Source: Candidatus Dadabacteria bacterium (GTDB lineage Bacteria > Desulfobacterota_D > UBA1144 > Nemesobacterales > JADFKM01). From it: a stretch of 64,000 nt of DNA. The stretch covers positions 464 through 64,463 of the forward strand of contig JADFKM010000001.1 of NCBI GenBank assembly GCA_022564935.1, written 5' to 3'. A model generated the notes under the pieces. The model was not told the origin of the DNA, searched no databases, and saw only the letters and a list, made by a program, of their open reading frames with translations. Every line of letters begins with the position of its first letter. Position 1 is the stretch's first letter. The position numbers and the translations under genes are program-made. This document shows positions 2,475 through 52,213 of the stretch, piece after piece.

Positions 2475-3662
2475 ATGGATAAAGTCTTGTCGAAATTTAA
2501 AGAGAATTTAAGAAGACTTCAACGCTTTATAGGCAATTTATTGCAAAGAGTGTTAGCCGGAGTTGGCTGGGGTATGGACTCCATCAAGGTTTTGTCGGAA
2601 AAATTTTATAAGAAATTAATTTCCATATGGAAAGAAAGTATTGAAGGTCAACTCTTTCTTGTTCCATTACTTTGGAAATATAAGATTCCACTGCTAGAGA
2701 TACTGGCTTTACTTATAATTTCTTCAGTATTATTATGGGGATTTATACTTTTATTGCTGCCCCCCGCCTCCGATGTTTACAACCCGAGAAAGGAAGCCCT
2801 TGAACTTTCTATTAAAATTATCGCAGGTGCTTTATTACTCGTCGGTCTCTATTATGGTTGGCGGCGCATTACAATAGCAGAAGAAGGGCAAATAACGGAG
2901 CGGTTCACTAGGGCTATTGACCAGTTGGGGAAAATTGACAATAAAGGGAAATCAGTTATCGAAGTCCGCCTCGGCGGCATCTACGCACTTGAGCGCATAG
3001 CCCGTGACTCTGAAAAAGACCACTGGCAGATTATGGAAGTTTTGACGGCATATGTTCGTAAAAATGCTCATTGGACTGGCGAGAAGGAAAAAGAGAAAAT
3101 TGACGAAAAGTGGAAGTCTGGGGAATCTAAGGAAGTGGGTGAGCAAGGTGAAAAGAAAGAGCAAAAACCGCGTGAAGATATCCAAGCAATAATAACGGTG
3201 ATAGGTCGTAGAAGTGATGAACGCCGGAAATATGAAAAAGAAAAGGGGTATGTCATTGATTTAAGCAAAACAGACCTTCGGAGAGCCGACCTTAGGAAAG
3301 CAAAACTTGAGGGAGCCAACCTATTTGATGCAAATCTTAAGGGAGCCGACCTAAGAGGAGCAAATCTTGAGAGAGCCAGGCTAATAGGAGCAAATCTAGA
3401 GGGAGCCTGGCTATGGTCATCAAATCTTGAGGGAGCCATCCTAGTGGGAGCAAATCTTGAGGGAGCCGACCTAAAAGGAGCAAATCTAAAGGGGGCAAAT
3501 CTCAAGGGAGCTAAAAAATTAACCACAGAACAGCTTTCAAAGGTGGAAACGCTTTACGAAGCCAAATTAGATAAAGAGCTTATGGAAGAGATAAAGGAAA
3601 AATGTCCGCCTCTTCTGGAAAGACCGGAAGAGGAAATATTTGTGTTCAAGGGAGATCTTTAG
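2475..3662 (+). CDS. Membrane-anchored pentapeptide-repeat protein, a lower-GC paralog of the upstream gene
   Basis: Two predicted TM helices ([23 protein letters not shown] and [17 protein letters not shown]). Shared N-domain motif ([24 protein letters not shown] versus ELARDSKDRQ..ALTACVRRNSPW). A KE-rich linker, pentapeptide repeats ([43 protein letters not shown]) and the same tail [29 protein letters not shown] stop. Confidence 0.85.
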
Positions 3663-9420: not shown

Positions 9421-9743
9421 TTTAGTCTATGATTGTAAATGGCGTGTTCAGCGCGGCTGGAGTTTTGCGTAAGGTTATAAACTGAAAGGAAAGAAAAACG
9501 GATTTATTAAGTGACTTGTCCATAGTTCTATCTTAAACTATGTGGATAGATTTAAACTCCCTCTACGAAATTCGTTATCCCCAACTATTGCTTATTCCCC
9601 AATACCCCCCCCTCTAAAATAATAGGGGGTACGGGGGGATATGTCAAACGTAAGCATTTGGTTTTGCAGTGCTTCTCTTTATCATCGACTGTGCCATTTT
9701 CTAATATTAGATTGTCTTAAGTTTCATTTTAACCCTGCAATTG

Positions 9744-9953
9744 TTAGGAGGAGGTTAATATATCCATCAGCTCATGGGCAAGAAACAGTTTTATTATGTC
9801 GTCCTCGCCGTTCCTTTCCGCCACGGCCAGGGCAGCTCTAAGCTCATTTGAGTTTGATAGGGGAGGGTTGCGGAGTAGCCCGCAGCGGGCATCAGAGCGG
9901 CCGCAAACAGTACTAATAGAGCTAAACGTATAGGCGCGGGAAGTAAATTCCAT
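9744..9953 (-). CDS. Small hypothetical protein (69 aa) in the long AT-rich thiL-polA intergenic region
   Basis: A GC-rich open frame inside an otherwise AT-rich 725-bp spacer, with a GGAGAG SD-like sequence upstream. No recognisable motif. Confidence 0.25.
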   Translation of the reverse strand: MEFTSRAYTFSSISTVCGRSDARCGLLRNPPLSNSNELRAALAVAERNGEDDIIKLFLAHELMDILTSS

Positions 9954-10107
9954 GATTCATTTATCCACTCTCCTCGGGGTCAAAAATCGCTAAAATTTGA
10001 AGGCAATCTTATCAATTATAAAAATATTTGGCAAAAAAGCCAATATATACACTAAAGTATAATTTATACCTAAATAATTACGTTAACTAAAGGGGGCTCA
10101 TCGGTCT

Positions 10108-10136
10108 TTGACACTCGGGGCGGGTAATCATAAAAT
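10108..10136 (+). promoter_or_regulatory. Candidate sigma70-type promoter for polA (TTGACA, 17 bp spacer, TAAAAT)
   Basis: ctTTGACActcggggcgggtaatcaTAAAATgtaaggtgtATG. Consensus -35, 17-bp spacer, -10-like hexamer, then an AAGGTG SD 5 nt before the ATG at 10146. Confidence 0.45.
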
Positions 10137-10145
10137 GTAAGGTGT

Positions 10146-12860
10146 ATGGAAGAGCGGGTTCTTTACCTCATAGATGGAAGCTCTTACGTGTTCAGGGCTT
10201 ATTATAATACGCCTCGCCAGATGAGAACACGTGAAAAATTTCCTACAAACGCTATATATGGGTTTACGCAAATGCTTTTGATGTTCTTAAGGCAATATGA
10301 ACCCAAGTACATCGGGGTGGTGTTCGACTCGAAGGGAAAGACATTCAGGAGCGACATTTACCCTGAATACAAGGCGAAGAGGCAGGAGACGCCCGAAGAC
10401 CTTGTTCGTCAGTTCCCCCGGATTGTAGAGTTGGTCGAGGGCTTCGGAATACCGAGCGTGCAGATGGAGGGATTCGAAGCCGATGATATAATGGGTACGA
10501 TTTCTAAGAGAGTCGAAGAAGAAGGCGCGAAGGTGGTGCTCGTTACCGGGGATAAGGATTTCTTACAGCTTGTCTCGGATAAGGTAACGCTGCTCGACAC
10601 TATGAAGTACATAGAAACTGATGTGGAGGGGGTCGAGGCAAAGGTAGGGGTCACCCCTGCTCAGGTTGTAGATTTTCTTGCTCTGATGGGGGATACGAGC
10701 GATAACGTGCCTGGAGTAAAAGGAATTGGGAAGAAGACTGCGGCTGAACTGGTAAAAAAGTGGGGTTCTCTTGAAAAGATAATAGAGAACCTTGAGAAAC
10801 TTGCCGATAAGCATAAGGAGCTTGTAGAGGCGGGTATTGAGGATGCCAATTTAAGTAAGGTGCTTGTCACAATAAAGACCGACGTGCCCGTGGAGCATAA
10901 ACTGGAGGATTTCAGCTATAGGGGATTTGACAAAGAGGTGCTGAGAGAGGCGTTCGAGAAGTACGAGATGCGGACGCTCCTCAAGGAGCTTGGTGGAGAT
11001 ACCGAAGCCGGAGAGGCTGCCCCGCCGGAGCAGGACAGCCCGGTGTCCTACGAGGGCTACAGGCTCGTGCTTACAGAGAAGGATTTACTCGCGGTAGTCG
11101 AGAGGATACGCGAGGAGGGTGTGGTTTCAATCGACCTGGAGACCACCTCGCCCCAGCCTATGCTCGCAGAGATTGTGGGCATAGCGCTTGCCCCTGCCCC
11201 CGGGGAGGCGTACTACGTACCGACGGGGCACACCTCGATGGAAGCGCACGCGCAAGGTCAGCTTCCTCTTGATACGGTGCTCGGCGTGCTGAAGCCCGTT
11301 ATCGAAGATGGGGGGATAAAGAAGATCGGGCAGAACCTCAAATACGAGATTATGGTGCTCAATCTTCAGGGCGCTTTTATGAGCGGCGTTTACTGCGACA
11401 TGATGGTCGCGGCACACCTCATTGACTCCGGCCGTCTGAGCTACAGCCTCGACTCCCTGTCCAAGGACTATCTGGGCCACAGCACCATCACTTACAAGGA
11501 CGTTACGGGCACGGGGAAGAACAAGATAGGGTTCGGGGAGGTGGAGCTTCAAGCGGCGCTCCAATACGCGGGCGAAGACGCAGACGTGGCTCTTCGGCTC
11601 GCAGAGCGACTGATGGGTCAGCTCGAGCAGGAGGGTCTGCTCGAGTCGTACACGGCCTACGAGCTAAAGTTTATAGAGGTGCTTGCGGGGATGGAGATGA
11701 GGGGCGTAAAGGTGGACGGGGACAAGCTCGGAGAGCTGTCGGTTGAGTTCAGCGCCGAGCTTGAGCGTGTCGTGGGCGAGGTTTACACAGAGGCGGGACG
11801 GGAGTTCAACATAAACTCCACGCTGCAGCTCAGGAAAGTTCTGTTCGAGGAGCTTGAGCTGCCCATAAAAAAGCGCACGCCGAAGGGCGAGCCTTCTACG
11901 GATGTGGAGGTACTGACCGACCTCTCAAGGCAGCACCCCGTGCCCGCGAAGGTGCTTGAGTACAGGGGGCTTGCGAAGCTCAAGTCCACCTACATCGACG
12001 CCCTGCCAAGGCTCATAAACCCCGAGACCGGCCGTATCCACACCTCCTTCAACCACGTGGGCACCTCGACGGGGAGGCTGAGCTCCTCGGACCCTAATCT
12101 CCAAAACATCCCCATCAAAACAGGGGAGGGCAGGAGGATACGCGAGGCCTTTGTGCCTGATGCCGGGCATGTACTGCTCTCTGCCGACTACTCGCAGATC
12201 GAGCTGAGGCTCCTAGCCCATTTCTCGGGGGACGAAGCCCTGATAGAGGCATTTCGTGCGGACCGCGACATACACTCGGCCACCGCCGCCGAGATATTCG
12301 GCGTGAGCGAGGCCGATGTGACCCCGGAGATGCGGAGGCTTGCGAAGAACATCAACTTCGGCATCATCTACGGCATAAGCCCCTTTGGCCTAGCCAAGCA
12401 GCTGGGCACTTCTATGGGGGTGGCCAAGGGCTACATGGACGAGTATTTCGCGCGGTACGGCCGGGTGAAGAGCTACATGGAGTCCTCGGTAGAAGAGGCC
12501 AGGAGCAGGGGCTACGCCGCCACCATGCTCGGGCGCAGGAGGCCCATCCCGGAGCTTCAGTCGAAGAACAGGACGCTACGCGGCGCGGGGGAGCGGGCGG
12601 CAATCAACACCCCCGTGCAGGGCACCGCGGCCGACATCATCAAGATAGCGATGATACGCATTCACGAGCGTCTGCGGGGCGATGGCTGGGGCTCGGACAT
12701 GATACTGCAGGTGCACGACGAGCTGCTGTTCGAGGTGCCGGAGGGGGAGCTTGAGGAGACGGGGCGGATGGTGCGCGGGGAGATGGAGAGCGCCATGGAG
12801 CTGAGCGTGCCGCTCAAGGTAGACATCGGCGTGGGAGGCAACTGGGCCGAGGCGCATTGA
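10146..12860 (+). CDS. polA: DNA polymerase I (5'-3' exonuclease, 3'-5' exonuclease and polymerase domains)
   Basis: 904 aa. N-terminal 5' nuclease (LYLIDGSSYVFRAYY...GFEADDIMGT), a 3'-5' exo region, and C-terminal Pol A motifs (RRLAKNINFGIIYG; QVHDELLFEV). Confidence 0.95.
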   Translation: MEERVLYLIDGSSYVFRAYYNTPRQMRTREKFPTNAIYGFTQMLLMFLRQYEPKYIGVVFDSKGKTFRSDIYPEYKAKRQETPEDLVRQFPRIVELVEGFGIPSVQMEGFEADDIMGTISKRVEEEGAKVVLVTGDKDFLQLVSDKVTLLDTMKYIETDVEGVEAKVGVTPAQVVDFLALMGDTSDNVPGVKGIGKKTAAELVKKWGSLEKIIENLEKLADKHKELVEAGIEDANLSKVLVTIKTDVPVEHKLEDFSYRGFDKEVLREAFEKYEMRTLLKELGGDTEAGEAAPPEQDSPVSYEGYRLVLTEKDLLAVVERIREEGVVSIDLETTSPQPMLAEIVGIALAPAPGEAYYVPTGHTSMEAHAQGQLPLDTVLGVLKPVIEDGGIKKIGQNLKYEIMVLNLQGAFMSGVYCDMMVAAHLIDSGRLSYSLDSLSKDYLGHSTITYKDVTGTGKNKIGFGEVELQAALQYAGEDADVALRLAERLMGQLEQEGLLESYTAYELKFIEVLAGMEMRGVKVDGDKLGELSVEFSAELERVVGEVYTEAGREFNINSTLQLRKVLFEELELPIKKRTPKGEPSTDVEVLTDLSRQHPVPAKVLEYRGLAKLKSTYIDALPRLINPETGRIHTSFNHVGTSTGRLSSSDPNLQNIPIKTGEGRRIREAFVPDAGHVLLSADYSQIELRLLAHFSGDEALIEAFRADRDIHSATAAEIFGVSEADVTPEMRRLAKNINFGIIYGISPFGLAKQLGTSMGVAKGYMDEYFARYGRVKSYMESSVEEARSRGYAATMLGRRRPIPELQSKNRTLRGAGERAAINTPVQGTAADIIKIAMIRIHERLRGDGWGSDMILQVHDELLFEVPEGELEETGRMVRGEMESAMELSVPLKVDIGVGGNWAEAH

Positions 12861-12865
12861 GGGGT
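12834..12865 (+). repeat. Left copy of a 32-bp imperfect direct repeat (polA 3' end, GGAGGCAACTGGGCCGAGGCGCATTGAGGGGT)
   Basis: The same 32-mer (29/32 identical) recurs at 13911..13942. Together they bracket a low-GC insert. Confidence 0.7.
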
Positions 12866-13910
12866 TTTCATGAATTGTATTATGTTGATAATGAGTAATA
12901 ATTATCTACATAATGGCAATCCGGATCATCGTTAACGGCATTGGAATTCCCAGCCAAATAATGGGGAGCTGCAATGAGCGAGTCGAATGAAGCCTTGATC
13001 GTTGCTCTCAACCCGGATCCCTCCACCCCTAATATTGTAAATGGAATTGAAGAGCTGGTCGATAAACTGGGAGACCTCGTTACGTTTTATAAGTTAGGGA
13101 TTGACTTGCTGGTGAATGAAAAATTTTGGGAAATACTGCCGCTGCTCACCGAGAAGGGGAAGAAGATATTTCTCGATATGAAATCTATTGAAATAGAAGA
13201 AGTCATACGCCGTACCGTGAGGAACGCGGGGCTGCTCAATATAAAATTTCTAACCCTTGATGGGAATAACAGCAATAAAAATATCAGCGCTGCGGTAAGA
13301 GGCAGGGAAGAGTCGGGGAACGGAGTTAAGTTATTGGCATTGACACTGCTGACCAGCATCGATGCACATGATTTCAGCGAGATCTATGGGAGGAAAGCAA
13401 AAGATATCGATGATTTTGTGTTGAGTCGCGCTAAAAGACTGCTTAATGCCGGATGTGACGGGATTATCGCTTCCGGTAGAGAAACGGAGATGTTAAGAGA
13501 GAAATTGAGAGATGAAGTAAAGAAGGATTTCTTAATCGTAACGCCCGGTATTCGCAGGGCGTCGGACAGCAAAGATGATCAAAAGAGGTTCGTCACCCCC
13601 GCGGAGGCCATAATGGCGGGCTCCAATTATCTCGTCGTCGGCAGGCCTATTACCGAATCTGAAGACCCTGAACTGTCTGCCCGGGAAATATTGGACGAGA
13701 TGGATGAGGCTTTTGATAAGAAGAGTAAAAAATTAGAGTCGTTGGAATTTTCACGAATCCAAATCCAGTCGTAATTACTAAGCCTTACAAACCCTGAATT
13801 ACGCGAAAAGCAATATTCAATTCATAAGCTTCAGATTTTAAGAGTCTGTTTCCTATGGACGGGTTATTATGCCAAAGCACCCCTTTCATACTCAAGGGAG
13901 CTTTAATTTA
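12866..13910 (+). mobile_element. About 1.05-kb low-GC insert carrying one gene (OMPDC-like), bracketed by direct repeats of the polA 3' end. Possible integrated cassette or remnant of an integrative element; no integrase present.
   Basis: GC drops from about 60% to about 42-45%. The flanking 32-bp direct repeats are derived from the last codons of polA, and the right copy still encodes GGDWAKAH*. Confidence 0.45.
12974..13774 (+). CDS. Orotidine-5'-phosphate decarboxylase-family protein (PyrF-like, divergent active-site motif)
   Basis: OMPDC-suprafamily landmarks: FYKLGIDLL, FLDMKSIEIEEV (canonical is DxKxxDIpxT; here DxKxxEI), LLALTLLTS, TPGIR and NYLVVGRPI. Low GC relative to neighbours. 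Confidence 0.6.
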   Translation: MSESNEALIVALNPDPSTPNIVNGIEELVDKLGDLVTFYKLGIDLLVNEKFWEILPLLTEKGKKIFLDMKSIEIEEVIRRTVRNAGLLNIKFLTLDGNNSNKNISAAVRGREESGNGVKLLALTLLTSIDAHDFSEIYGRKAKDIDDFVLSRAKRLLNAGCDGIIASGRETEMLREKLRDEVKKDFLIVTPGIRRASDSKDDQKRFVTPAEAIMAGSNYLVVGRPITESEDPELSAREILDEMDEAFDKKSKKLESLEFSRIQIQS

Positions 13911-13942
13911 GGAGGGGACTGGGCCAAGGCGCATTGAGGGGT
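13911..13942 (+). repeat. Right copy of the 32-bp direct repeat (GGAGGGGACTGGGCCAAGGCGCATTGAGGGGT)
   Basis: 29/32 identity to 12834..12865. Encodes a duplicated PolA C-terminal remnant (GGDWAKAH-stop). Confidence 0.7.
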
Positions 13943-14125
13943 AGTTGCTCCTCAAAAGGGTAATTTAACGCAGTTGATATGTATTGGAGTTGTGATAAAC
14001 AATGCTGTTGGTTCTGTCGCGTTTATTTCCGGGCATGAACAACTGTCGTGGGGTATTTTAGAATGCTTGTACAGGATGGTACTCAGGCTTGGTTTTTCTG
14101 TTTACAAGTGTTAAAGTAGCTTCTC

Positions 14126-15574
14126 ATGTTTATTGCGGCTAGAGCGCTGGTTTGTTTGCTGTCGATCGTTGTGCTGCTGGCTCCTGCGGCGAGCTTTGGG
14201 GAAGGGGTATCGAGCGCAAAGCTCAACCGCGAGCTCACGAAGCTCATTTCAAGCAGCCCCCGCTCTTCCTCCCACATCGGGGTGGCAGTAAAGTCCCTCA
14301 AGACGGGAAAGGTGATATTCAGCCACAACGCCGGGAAGATGTTCATTCCCGCCTCGAACGTAAAGGTGTTCCTTTCCGCAGCGGCGCTCCTGTTCCTAAA
14401 GCCGGACTACAGGTTCAAGACCGAGTTCTACATCACCGGGCCGATACTGCACCGCTCTATTTACGGGGACATGTACGTCAAGGGGTACGGAGACCCGACT
14501 ATGCGCACGTCGGACCTCCGCTTCATTGCGAGCGAGCTGAAGAAACTGGGTATCGACCGGATAATGGGCTCCATCATGGTGGACGAGACGTTCTTTGACT
14601 CCGTGCGATTTGGGCTCGGGTGGAAGAAGAAGTGGAAGGGGCTCGCCTACAGCCCTCCAATAAGCGCGCTTTCCCTCAACTACAACACCTTCGAAGTTAA
14701 CGTCTACCCCACCAGGGTCGGGTTGCCGCCCATGGTAGAGATAGATCCGAAGGGCGCGGGCATTAAGGTCGTCAACAGGGCGGTGACAAGCTTGCGGTGG
14801 GGGAGGCTGTATGGAGACGTGAGGGAGGGTGGAGGCGCTATGACGATTCGGGGACGGATATCGTCCAGGTCAGGCAAGCTGACCGTGACAAAGGCGGTGC
14901 CGGTGCCGCCGATATACACGGGCAGGGTTTTGCGCGCCAACCTGAAAGAGTCCGGCATTGAGGTCGAGGGCGATGTGGCGCTGGGCAAGGTGCCCCGGGA
15001 GGCGCACCTGCTTTACACCCATTACTCCGACACGCTTGACCGTGTTATAAACCTGTACAATAAGAGCAGCGTCAACTTGATAGGGGAGAACATTATAAAG
15101 GTGCTGGGCGCAAAATACATGGGAGCGCCGGGCACTTGGGAGAAAGGCGCTAACGTGGTGGGAAGGTTCCTTGGTGTGGTGGGGGTTAAGGAGGGGGCGA
15201 GGGTTGTTGACGGCTCGGGTCTCTCCCCGCTCAACCGCTCCTCTCCCGAAGCCCTGGTCGAAGTGCTCAGGTTCGCATACAGGAATAAGCTCATCTCCCA
15301 CGAGTTCGTCACATCACTTTCCATCGGGGGCGTCGACGGCACCCTTGAGGGCAGGTTCAAAAAGTCCGAACTGGAGGGCAGGGTGATGGCAAAGACGGGC
15401 TATCTCAAAGGCGTCAGAACCCTTTCGGGCTATCTATTTACCAAGTCGGGCGACGTTCTTGCATTCTCTATCCTCTCGAACGGTCTCGGCTCTGAAGTCA
15501 AAGAGATACAGCAAAACCTCTTGATGAAGCTGGTTGAGTGCTGCCGGGACACATACATCATAAAGCGCGATTGA
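14126..15574 (+). CDS. dacB: D-alanyl-D-alanine carboxypeptidase/endopeptidase, PBP4 family (peptidase S13)
   Basis: Signal peptide; SxxK active-site motif (PASNVKV); S13 family C-terminal block (DGSGLSPLNRSSPEALVEVLRFA...AKTGYLKGVRTLSGYL). Confidence 0.85.
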   Translation: MFIAARALVCLLSIVVLLAPAASFGEGVSSAKLNRELTKLISSSPRSSSHIGVAVKSLKTGKVIFSHNAGKMFIPASNVKVFLSAAALLFLKPDYRFKTEFYITGPILHRSIYGDMYVKGYGDPTMRTSDLRFIASELKKLGIDRIMGSIMVDETFFDSVRFGLGWKKKWKGLAYSPPISALSLNYNTFEVNVYPTRVGLPPMVEIDPKGAGIKVVNRAVTSLRWGRLYGDVREGGGAMTIRGRISSRSGKLTVTKAVPVPPIYTGRVLRANLKESGIEVEGDVALGKVPREAHLLYTHYSDTLDRVINLYNKSSVNLIGENIIKVLGAKYMGAPGTWEKGANVVGRFLGVVGVKEGARVVDGSGLSPLNRSSPEALVEVLRFAYRNKLISHEFVTSLSIGGVDGTLEGRFKKSELEGRVMAKTGYLKGVRTLSGYLFTKSGDVLAFSILSNGLGSEVKEIQQNLLMKLVECCRDTYIIKRD

Positions 15575-50983: not shown

Positions 50984-51301
50984 TTAGAGGTCGGTTTCTG
51001 TTATTTCGAACTTTGTCCTTAGAAACATTATCAGCTCGGTAAGAGCTTCTCTCATAGACAACGTTAGTGCGGTCTTTCCGTACCTTCCCTCTACCACGTA
51101 ATCGAAATCCGCCGTCACGTGGTACTCGGATAGATCCTCTCCCGCGATGGTAGTCGAATCGCTGAGGATCTGATGGTATTGCGTTACAAGCTTATCGGAA
51201 ACGGGAGCGGAATCCTCTGAGGGGAGTGAGTACCGCATCGCCTTAAGCTCCGCGTACCGCACCTTCAATTCGTTCCTCTGTTCTTCAGTCAGCTCCGCCA
51301 T
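50984..51301 (-). CDS. Hypothetical 105-aa protein; paralog of the N-terminal domain of the next gene
   Basis: MAELTEEQRNELKVRYAELKA...LP...VS..V..Y..L aligns collinearly with residues 1-105 of the 240-aa neighbour. The same promoter-like repeat (AATCTATAATAGCATA) lies 55-75 nt upstream. Confidence 0.6.
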   Translation of the reverse strand: MAELTEEQRNELKVRYAELKAMRYSLPSEDSAPVSDKLVTQYHQILSDSTTIAGEDLSEYHVTADFDYVVEGRYGKTALTLSMREALTELIMFLRTKFEITETDL

Positions 51302-51355
51302 GGTTAGCCCCCTGCATAATGCTTTACATCGGTTATCTATATTGAGTTCCCGCTT

Positions 51356-51377
51356 CGAATCTATAATAGCATAGAAG
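51356..51377 (-). promoter_or_regulatory. Promoter-like repeat copy 1 (CGAATCTATAATAGCATAGAAG)
   Basis: Same 17/21-nt element and same spacing (about 55 nt) upstream of both paralogous ATGs; contains a TATAAT-like hexamer. Confidence 0.45.
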
Positions 51378-51417
51378 ATGTGAAAACAGAGTAAAAGTGT
51401 GTCAGAATTTTATCGTC

Positions 51418-52140
51418 TTATTTACTTTCCCTCACCTTAGTTTCATTCAAAATATCCAGTAGTATGTCAATAAAAGCCAGTATTTTCATTGCATCCTCTC
51501 TGGAAAACTGGTCTGAGAGCTTGTGATGGGTTTCGCCTCTAAAACTTAACATCGTACCCCTATAAAGCTGGTAAAAACCTTCTTGTTCGGATGGGGTACC
51601 ATCTATAACTAGTAAGCCCCTTGTATTATGAAGAACTGTGTTAACTAATTTTACTCCCACCTCTGTTAAGTCAGGGTCTGCTAAATTTCTAATTCTGTGT
51701 TCTAATATGGTGGTTGCTTCTCGTATTACTCTGTCAAAATTTTCTTGGGCTGATAAAAGGTCGATGCATCTTTCCTTTAACTCATTATCCTTGATTATCT
51801 TAATGATATTTCCTATTCCAACAATTGGTTTACTTTCTACTGATTCGAATTCTATGTTAATCAGTGCAATTAGTTGTCTAAGAATCGATTTAAATGATAG
51901 ATTAAAATAACGTCTAACAAGTTTTCTTCCAGTGGTGTATTCAGCATCTGGTTTAATTTTGAATTGTGAGAAATCTTTCTCAGATACACTTTCCAAATCT
52001 TTAAGAAGTCTAAAATAGCTATTAACGATTTGGTTAGATACCATTTCGGTTTCTTTTTGGGGCAGTGTGTCATCTATTGCTCTTAGCTGAGCAAATATAA
52101 TTTTTAATTTTTTGTGCTGCTCTTCAGACAACTCTGCCAT
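51418..52140 (-). CDS. Low-GC gene: N-terminal domain shared with the upstream paralog plus a C-terminal HEPN/Ymh (TIGR02391-like) domain. Abi- or toxin-like.
   Basis: MAELSEEQHKKLKIIFAQLRA... N-domain. The C-terminus (VIREATTILEHRIRNLA...GVKLVNTVLH...EQEGFYQLYRGTMLSFRGETHHK...DAMKILAFIDILLDIL) has the HEPN Rx4-6H motif (RGETHH) in Ymh-like context. A GCGCATATGCGC palindrome lies upstream. Confidence 0.6.
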   Translation of the reverse strand: MAELSEEQHKKLKIIFAQLRAIDDTLPQKETEMVSNQIVNSYFRLLKDLESVSEKDFSQFKIKPDAEYTTGRKLVRRYFNLSFKSILRQLIALINIEFESVESKPIVGIGNIIKIIKDNELKERCIDLLSAQENFDRVIREATTILEHRIRNLADPDLTEVGVKLVNTVLHNTRGLLVIDGTPSEQEGFYQLYRGTMLSFRGETHHKLSDQFSREDAMKILAFIDILLDILNETKVRESK

Positions 52141-52172
52141 TGCAAAACCCCTTCTTACAAATTAAGTCAGTT

Positions 52173-52184
52173 GCGCATATGCGC
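52173..52184 (-). promoter_or_regulatory. 12-bp perfect palindrome GCGCATATGCGC between the promoter repeat and the SD of the HEPN-like gene. Candidate operator.
   Basis: Visible perfect palindrome; absent from the paralog's upstream region. Confidence 0.4.
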
Positions 52185-52192
52185 TCCTACTA

Positions 52193-52213
52193 CAAATCTA
52201 TAATAGCATAAAG
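52193..52213 (-). promoter_or_regulatory. Promoter-like repeat copy 2 (CAAATCTATAATAGCATAAAG)
   Basis: See copy 1. Confidence 0.45.

Follow-up and report, generated by a model that had tools for sequence, protein, structure and literature searches.

A single-gene insert between two copies of the polA 3' end in a Candidatus Dadabacteria genome: a probable relic of site-specific integration carrying a divergent OMP-decarboxylase homologue

How did a single gene of low GC content come to lie between two copies of the 3' end of polA? The question is raised by a 64 kb stretch of DNA (the window; mean GC content 54%) from a metagenome-assembled genome (MAG) of Candidatus Dadabacteria. Here polA, which encodes DNA polymerase I, is followed by a gene of the orotidine 5'-monophosphate (OMP) decarboxylase family, by a second copy of the last 32 nt of polA and then by dacB. 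In an earlier note on this DNA the arrangement was taken for a site-specific insertion that had duplicated its target, the 3' end of polA, and in distant relatives dacB does directly follow polA, in keeping with an insertion. We consider it somewhat more probable than all other origins taken together (probability roughly 0.55) that one site-specific integration took place long ago at the 3' end of polA and left the insert as its relic, resembling a cis-mobilizable element (CIME) and now fixed.

The first line of evidence is the repeat itself. The proximal copy (GGAGGCAACTGGGCCGAGGCGCATTGAGGGGT, positions 12834–12865, plus strand; attL-like) comprises the last eight codons of polA (GGNWAEAH), the TGA stop codon and a further GGGGT. 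The distal copy (GGAGGGGACTGGGCCAAGGCGCATTGAGGGGT, 13911–13942, plus strand; attR-like) is a non-coding copy of the polA terminus that corresponds to GGDWAKAH-stop followed by GGGGT. The copies are identical at 29 of 32 positions and lie 1,077 nt apart from start to start, with 1,045 nt between them; the coordinates and the mismatches reported earlier are thereby confirmed. All three mismatches fall within the first 16 nt of the repeat, and the last 16 nt (AGGCGCATTGAGGGGT) are identical in both copies. Matches to the 32-mer with up to three mismatches number two in the window and zero in 100 dinucleotide-preserving shuffles. A common dispersed repeat, which the earlier note had named as an outcome that would undo its interpretation, is thus ruled out, there being only two copies in the 64 kb.

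The similarity between the two sites is confined to these 32 nt. The best local alignment of the left flanks (274 nt 5' of the proximal copy and 136 nt 5' of the distal copy) scores 16, compared with 14.6 ± 1.9 for shuffled sequences, and the right flanks give no alignment, so that similarity ends at the edges of the repeat. With no similarity in the flanks, the distal copy does not belong to a longer stretch of decayed polA or to a tandem duplication, and the 32-nt repeat is a discrete duplication. Both copies extend 5 nt past the stop codon and are GC-rich, like polA and unlike the insert, which indicates that one DNA sequence was copied and argues against convergent coding sequence. The C-terminal pattern G-x-N/S-W-x-x-A-H-stop is found in most of the polA homologues in the fetched loci and in nearly all of the Dadabacteria-like ones, and the polA of the window (10146–12860, plus strand; 904 residues; Pfam domains 5_3_exonuc_N, 5_3_exonuc, DNA_pol_A_exo1 and DNA_pol_A) is intact up to this conserved end (...GGNWAEAH-stop). 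A second copy of the locus's own polA 3' end within 4 kb was found in none of the 70+ other polA loci. The 3' half of the distal repeat also forms, together with its right flank, a 9 bp hairpin (TTGAGGGGT-AGTT-GCTCCTCAA, 13934–13955) without a T-run. The hairpin has no counterpart at the proximal copy and may represent the original structure downstream of polA.

The second line of evidence is the DNA between the copies. It holds one real open reading frame (ORF), at 12974–13774 on the plus strand, which is the only ORF of at least 60 amino acids apart from those nested in it. The layout is simple: the two repeats enclose 108 nt that include a promoter, then the gene, then 136 nt, and there is no pseudogene debris. 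The left non-coding part (12866–12973, plus strand; 108 nt, 36% GC) contains a σ70-like promoter, TTGATA-18-CATAAT (12885–12914, plus strand; a 10/12 promoter-like match), and a ribosome-binding site, GGGGAG (12963–12968, plus strand), upstream of the ORF. The right non-coding tail (13775–13910, plus strand; 136 nt, 37% GC) contains no remnant of polA or of a recombinase, no ORF and no significant fold, and a search against Rfam returned sub-threshold noise only. A 14-nt inverted repeat (12879–12892 and 12901–12914) overlaps the promoter-like site. In the divergent allele discussed below (L085), which is about 70% identical here, the same place reads TTGACA-18-TATAAT, the consensus, and the inverted repeat has disappeared. 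What is conserved is thus the promoter, and the inverted repeat is rejected as a recombination site. One ORF with only 108 and 136 nt of non-coding DNA around it leaves no room for a recombinase in the insert; as had been noted earlier, none is encoded there, the sole ORF being of the OMP-decarboxylase family.

The insert has a GC content of 43.3%, and the GC content at third codon positions (GC3) of its ORF is 0.52, compared with 0.79 for the 3' part of polA, 0.75 for dacB, 0.74 for ksgA and 0.70 for thiL. The description of the interval as DNA of lower GC content with exactly one gene thus stands (GC3 of 0.52 against 0.75–0.79 on either side). The compositional step at the insert is real. 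Composition alone is weak evidence, the window being patchy: GC content is low in some 15 places, one of them the 5' third of polA.

The third line of evidence is gene order in relatives, drawn from a polA scan with one genome per GTDB species that returned Dadabacteria and Thermodesulfobacteriota loci at most 64–66% identical in polA. In ten of these relatives (L012, L014, L017–L020, L025, L027, L043 and L045; polA 53–61% identical) dacB begins 16–270 bp after the polA stop codon, and not one of the ten has an OMP-decarboxylase gene near polA. In the window dacB (14126–15574, plus strand) encodes a PBP4-type D-Ala-D-Ala carboxypeptidase (Peptidase_S13, 5e-95; TIGR00666). It is often followed in the relatives, as here, by ksgA and a GGDEF gene, and L012 has the full order thiL–polA–dacB–ksgA–GGDEF. 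Parsimony suggests that polA–dacB is the ancestral order and that the decarboxylase unit is an insertion on the branch leading to this species. In a second clade polA is followed by a convergent gene with a weak, sub-threshold CarboxypepD_reg-like match. Among the collections queried, the nearest genomes outside the species cluster are about 60–66% identical in polA. Across that boundary identity drops from 96 to 59% for dacB and from 92 to 47% for the decarboxylase, with no intermediate genome in the collections. The comparison for an empty site that the earlier note proposed has thus succeeded in part: about ten distant relatives have the polA–dacB order without the decarboxylase gene, and no empty site was found within the species cluster.

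Two further relatives have a long spacer at the same place. In L010 (8713–9638) and L011 (8713–9752) about 1 kb of apparently non-coding DNA separates polA from dacB, and these spacers are conserved with each other at 78–80% identity in two blocks. Neither a remnant of the decarboxylase nor an Rfam family nor a further polA end is present in them, and they do not resemble the insert in the window. The polA–dacB spacer may be a recurrent place of insertion in the clade.

Within the species cluster, all or part of the region is covered by five other assemblies or contigs (L080–L082, L084 and L085), together with L083. L080–L082 match the window almost exactly; L084, at about 95% identity, spans both repeats; L085 (GCA_036477325.1) spans polA, the decarboxylase gene and dacB; and L083 covers the proximal repeat and the decarboxylase gene only. 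The product of the ORF in the window has the same sequence as MCH8028315.1, a protein of a Candidatus Dadabacteria MAG. Independent assemblies of different samples show the arrangement, with both repeats present in L082, L084 and L085, and this agreement rules out an assembly artefact. As a separate observation, assemblies L081 and L082 both stop exactly at window position 14175 and L080 stops at 14350, both points lying within dacB and close to its start; strains may differ at this place, or coverage may break off.

The site between polA and dacB is occupied in every sampled strain of the cluster, and the alleles are diverged and mosaic. The proximal repeat varies between strains as coding sequence does (GGN in the window, GSN in L084 and L085), and the distal repeat is identical in every contig that includes it (the window, L084 and L085). 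Compared with L085, the window is 98–100% identical in the flanks. Identity is 94% from about 250 nt before the polA stop codon. Past the proximal repeat and across the first ~70 nt of the ORF it is about 70%; beyond that point it returns to 99% and is then 85–90% to the end of the gene. The synonymous divergence (dS) of the decarboxylase gene, 0.26, is about five times that of the 3' part of polA or of dacB (~0.05). The divergent tract begins within polA, and the preferred interpretation is therefore import by homologous recombination from a more distant lineage with the same arrangement, not a separate re-integration. This makes the insertion old and fixed in the species cluster. If the three differences between the repeat copies (9%) all arose by drift in the distal copy, its age would lie well beyond the split of the strains.

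The gene carried by the insert, hereafter the cargo, was called a paralog in the earlier note, a status that is unproven. It belongs to the OMP-decarboxylase family (PF00215, 119.7 bits against a cutoff of 27, 2e-34). It passes the cutoff of TIGR01740 (126.6 against 92.3 bits) and falls just below that of the NCBIfam equivalog model NF001273 (184.2 against 193 bits), and among solved structures it comes closest to the OMP decarboxylases of bacteria (E = 2.6e-32). Among four alleles the ratio of nonsynonymous to synonymous divergence (dN/dS) is 0.23–0.29, which indicates that the gene is maintained by purifying selection. The best homologues, at most 47% identical, lie on contigs L087 and L088, which are not Dadabacteria-like; L088 has a GC content of 58% and encodes an AIR-synthase-family protein that shares just 23% identity with the thiL region of L012. 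The protein has 266 residues in the window and 252–254 in the other alleles. This difference arises at positions 13727–13732, where the window and L080–L082 have six A residues, L085 has five and L084 is also one base short; the difference alters the reading frame at the very end of the gene and could be real or a homopolymer error.

Like canonical PyrF, the cargo keeps the family signature, with the Lys/Asp network and the phosphate and pyrimidine ligands (K40, D68, K70, S128, R194, Q203 and R224). Unlike canonical PyrF, it has all three ribose-hydroxyl ligands replaced, by Asn, Glu and Val, and a near-invariant His changed to Asp. The four substitutions (D13N, D73E, T77V and H96D) are present in all four alleles, and the original residues are invariant or nearly so in the 117 nearest homologues. 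There is also a five-residue insertion after residue 13, following the first strand. The assignment of the ligands is based on motif spacing: from D68-x-K70-x-x-E73-x-x-x-V77 in the cargo and D91-x-K93-x-x-D96-x-x-x-T100 in the yeast enzyme (ScOMPDC), cargo residues 13, 73 and 77 would correspond to yeast D37, D96' and T100'. In ScOMPDC these are the side chains that contact the ribosyl hydroxyls, and the contacts are credited with a large share of the transition-state stabilization (2025 review, PMC12874384). The replacements could reflect relaxed or compensated evolution of a xenologous pyrF or an altered sugar specificity.

How could such a structure have formed? The attachment site of an integrative element would have been similar to the final ~32 bp of polA, and crossover with the chromosome would have fallen within the 16 nt that are identical in the two copies. 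Of the resulting copies, the attL-like one would leave polA intact and the attR-like one would lie 1,045 bp downstream. Remaining between them would be a self-contained expression unit with a promoter, a ribosome-binding site and one OMP-decarboxylase-family gene. The missing recombinase would either have been lost when the rest of the element was deleted or never have been encoded by the unit. Such a structure would correspond to a CIME, with the att sites kept and the genes for integration and transfer lost. It would then have become fixed in the species cluster and been kept by purifying selection on the cargo, with exchange among strains proceeding by ordinary homologous recombination and not by excision and re-integration. 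Excision, if it took place, would give two junctions: an empty site in which polA ...GGCGCATTGAGGGGT is followed by AGTTGCTCCTCAAAAGGG, and a circle in which ...GCTTTAATTTA is joined through one 32-mer to TTTCATGAATTGTATT.

We infer both the involvement of a site-specific recombinase in making the duplication and the location of the crossover. Mismatches in the left half only, with an identical right 16 nt, would be expected if exchange took place in a shared core flanked by imperfect core-type arms. More generally, site-specific integration into the 3' end of a gene leaves this combination: a discrete but imperfect repeat of that end, a gene that is still intact, DNA of foreign appearance between the copies and mismatches in one half of the repeat only.

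A number of results weigh against this origin. No recombinase or transposase was found among the ~36 window ORFs scanned in the 64 kb, and none was found just downstream of polA in the ten ORFs sampled from nine relatives, so that polA is not shown to be a recurrent attachment site. The att-like core was absent from metagenome contigs of the Joint Genome Institute (JGI), as was the tail of the insert, and from IMG/VR, as was the cargo protein; the DNA of the insert was absent from the plasmids searched. The collections scanned yielded no empty site, no circle junction and no second context for the unit. Close relatives gave no empty site either, and the case for one is a case from gene order only. 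By direct reading, a weak test, the 32-mer shows no clear dyad symmetry like that of well-studied recombinase core sites. Finally, low GC content does not by itself point to an integrative element, since other low-GC patches in the window resemble imports by homologous recombination.

Further tests for mobility bear on the kind of element that could be involved. Read directly, the 32-mer has no dif-like 11-6-11 dyad or consensus, the only dyad being a weak gapped one (CAACTGGGCC..GGCGCATTG). No attC-like palindrome was found: single-strand DNA folds of 13775–13960 gave z = -0.66 and -0.46, and the other structure tested at the left end of the insert was not significant. The search for attC-like imperfect palindromes that had been suggested earlier therefore returned a negative result, the only inverted repeat in the insert being the one in the promoter region. 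No pair of terminal inverted repeats spans the insert ends. An insertion sequence or transposon is rejected, given the lack of terminal inverted repeats and of a transposase and a 32-nt duplication that is too long; usual target-site duplications are far shorter. When compared with phage records, the cargo protein gave matches to ordinary pyrF only, at ~32–35% identity. There is no sign of present-day mobility.

Three other origins were weighed against site-specific integration, along with the possibility that nothing was inserted. The one that survives best, although unlikely, is homology-facilitated illegitimate recombination with a related donor that already had the decarboxylase unit behind its polA, without a repeat. 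One crossover would have taken place inside polA and the other end would have been joined illegitimately 32 nt before the end of the recipient polA, so that the proximal copy would be the donor polA end and the distal copy the original end of the recipient. Exchange with diverged lineages is evident at this locus, in the tract between the window and L085 that runs from ~250 nt inside polA into the insert (94, 85 and 70% identity). It is also suggested by the 5' third of polA, which is lower in GC content and three to four times more diverged between strains, and by other low-GC genes that stand in tandem with high-GC homologues in the window. Two events are nevertheless needed, and the first placement of the gene behind polA is left unexplained. 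The donor polA end and its five post-stop bases would have to match those of the recipient nearly perfectly, and no genome with polA followed by the decarboxylase but lacking the distal repeat has been seen.

A rather less likely origin is a RecA-dependent, Campbell-type single crossover of a small circle carrying the decarboxylase gene and a captured polA 3' fragment of ~32 bp or longer. This would end in the same structure, with the shared segment directly repeated on either side of the whole circle, and would require no site-specific recombinase, in agreement with none having been found. It does require a prior event that placed the polA fragment on the circle, and no plasmid or virus was found with the gene or the core. 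A length of 32 bp is near the minimum for homologous recombination in E. coli, and recombination is very inefficient at such short homology.

The tidy anatomy of the insert, free of pseudogene debris, might instead suggest a minimal cargo cassette that is still active and is moved in trans by a recombinase encoded elsewhere, in the manner of an integron, a tycheposon satellite or an integrative mobile element exploiting Xer (IMEX). We regard this as improbable. All of the sampled strains are occupied, and a dS of 0.26 in the cassette above flanks of ~0.05, in a tract that starts inside polA, indicates homologous exchange and not re-integration. Nor is there an attC-like structure, a dif-like 11-6-11 dyad, a further core in the window or another context in the collections scanned. 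A bolder proposal, to which we give only a slim chance, is that the unit represents an undescribed class of self-promoted, recombinase-less single-gene cassettes inserted in trans at the polA 3' end. The cargo of this class would be a neofunctionalized OMP decarboxylase whose remodelled ribose-hydroxyl pocket (D→N, D→E, T→V and H→D) would suit an orotidylate analogue with a different sugar, for example 2'-deoxy or otherwise modified. That there was no insertion, and that the repeat is a chance similarity or an assembly artefact, has nothing in its favour beyond the general conservation of polA C-termini and is already refuted by the zero matches in 100 shuffles, the identity of post-stop non-coding bases and the agreement of independent assemblies.

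If the insert is the relic of a site-specific integration, it offers a small and clean case of a foreign gene gained at a gene 3' end, at a housekeeping locus of a poorly known uncultured phylum, with both att-like scars kept and everything for mobility lost. The gene polA would then join the protein-coding genes used as attachment sites. As a finding about mobile elements this is ordinary. The cargo is the more interesting by-product, with exactly the three ribose-gripping side chains replaced under purifying selection, and it could show that the active site tolerates a different solution, or uncover a novel specificity for substrate, within a very well-studied enzyme family.

Other parts of the window are also mosaic. 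Within polA, the 5'–3' exonuclease third (10146–10955) has a GC content of 47.7% and a GC3 of 0.56, and the remainder (10956–12860) has values of 61.1% and 0.79. Relative to L085, the 5' third is three to four times more diverged than the rest (proportion of synonymous differences, pS, 0.19 versus 0.054). Import of this third from a sampled relative is not supported, the per-domain identities being ordinary, and no donor is named. Between thiL and polA lies a 725-nt stretch of low GC content (9421–10145; 41%) without a convincing gene. A 69-residue ORF on its minus strand (9744–9953) was called in one assembly and has no Pfam match, and Rfam found nothing in 9421–10145.

Two pairs of homologues differ in composition. 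A Hypoth_Ymh-family gene at 51418–52140 (within the minus-strand region 50984–52210) has a very low GC3 of 0.29 and is flanked by a promoter-looking 31-nt direct repeat with 81% identity (51343–51373 and 52180–52210). Directly downstream of it is a high-GC ORF of 105 residues (50984–51301) with a paralogous N-terminus (MAELTEEQRNELK... versus MAELSEEQHKKLK...). The pair has the appearance of a xenologue of low GC content arranged in tandem with a native copy that may be truncated. The second low-GC/high-GC pair consists of tandem pentapeptide-repeat genes at 1334–2392 and 2475–3662, with GC3 values of 0.77 and 0.38, respectively.

To which known system, then, does the insert come closest? The earlier note had offered three likenesses: an integron-like cassette, a tycheposon-like cassette and a decayed island. 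Like an integron cassette, the insert is a single-gene unit without its own recombinase. Integron cassettes are as a rule promoterless, and the insert differs from them in having its own promoter-like site, in the lack of an attC palindrome and of intI or attI among the scanned ORFs, and in being bounded by a 32-nt copy of a host gene end and not by a GTTRRRY core; the first likeness is therefore not upheld. The tycheposons of Prochlorococcus (Hackl et al. 2023) are reportedly defined by a tyrosine recombinase together with hallmark replication and packaging genes. The insert shares with them a cargo at the 3' end of a conserved gene and the partial duplication of that end. Unlike in tycheposons, the tyrosine recombinase and the hallmark genes are absent from the insert and from the scanned window ORFs, and the second likeness goes no further than the duplicated gene end. 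The repeat also lacks a dif-like XerC/XerD site, unlike IMEX and dif modules.

Closer parallels are found among elements that integrate into protein-coding genes. The e14 element and phage 21 integrate in icd of E. coli and supply a substitute 3' end. As in those cases, the gene 3' end here is duplicated with few mismatches and the coding sequence is functional; unlike e14 and phage 21, which have an integrase and many genes, the insert retains only the cargo. We know of no related integrase-bearing element for the polA site or for this phylum, and a limited literature search found no use of polA as an attachment site. Examples of CIMEs include those at the 3' end of fda in Streptococcus thermophilus. 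CIMEs are decayed integrative and conjugative elements (ICEs) or integrative and mobilizable elements (IMEs) retaining attL and attR and lacking the integrase and transfer genes (PMC5704250). The insert differs from these in measuring only 1 kb and carrying a single gene, with no mobilization or excision seen. Like CIMEs, it lies at the 3' end of a housekeeping gene that is left intact, is bounded by imperfect direct repeats of the gene end and carries a small cargo without genes for recombination or transfer, and the decayed island is accordingly the part of the earlier interpretation that fits best.

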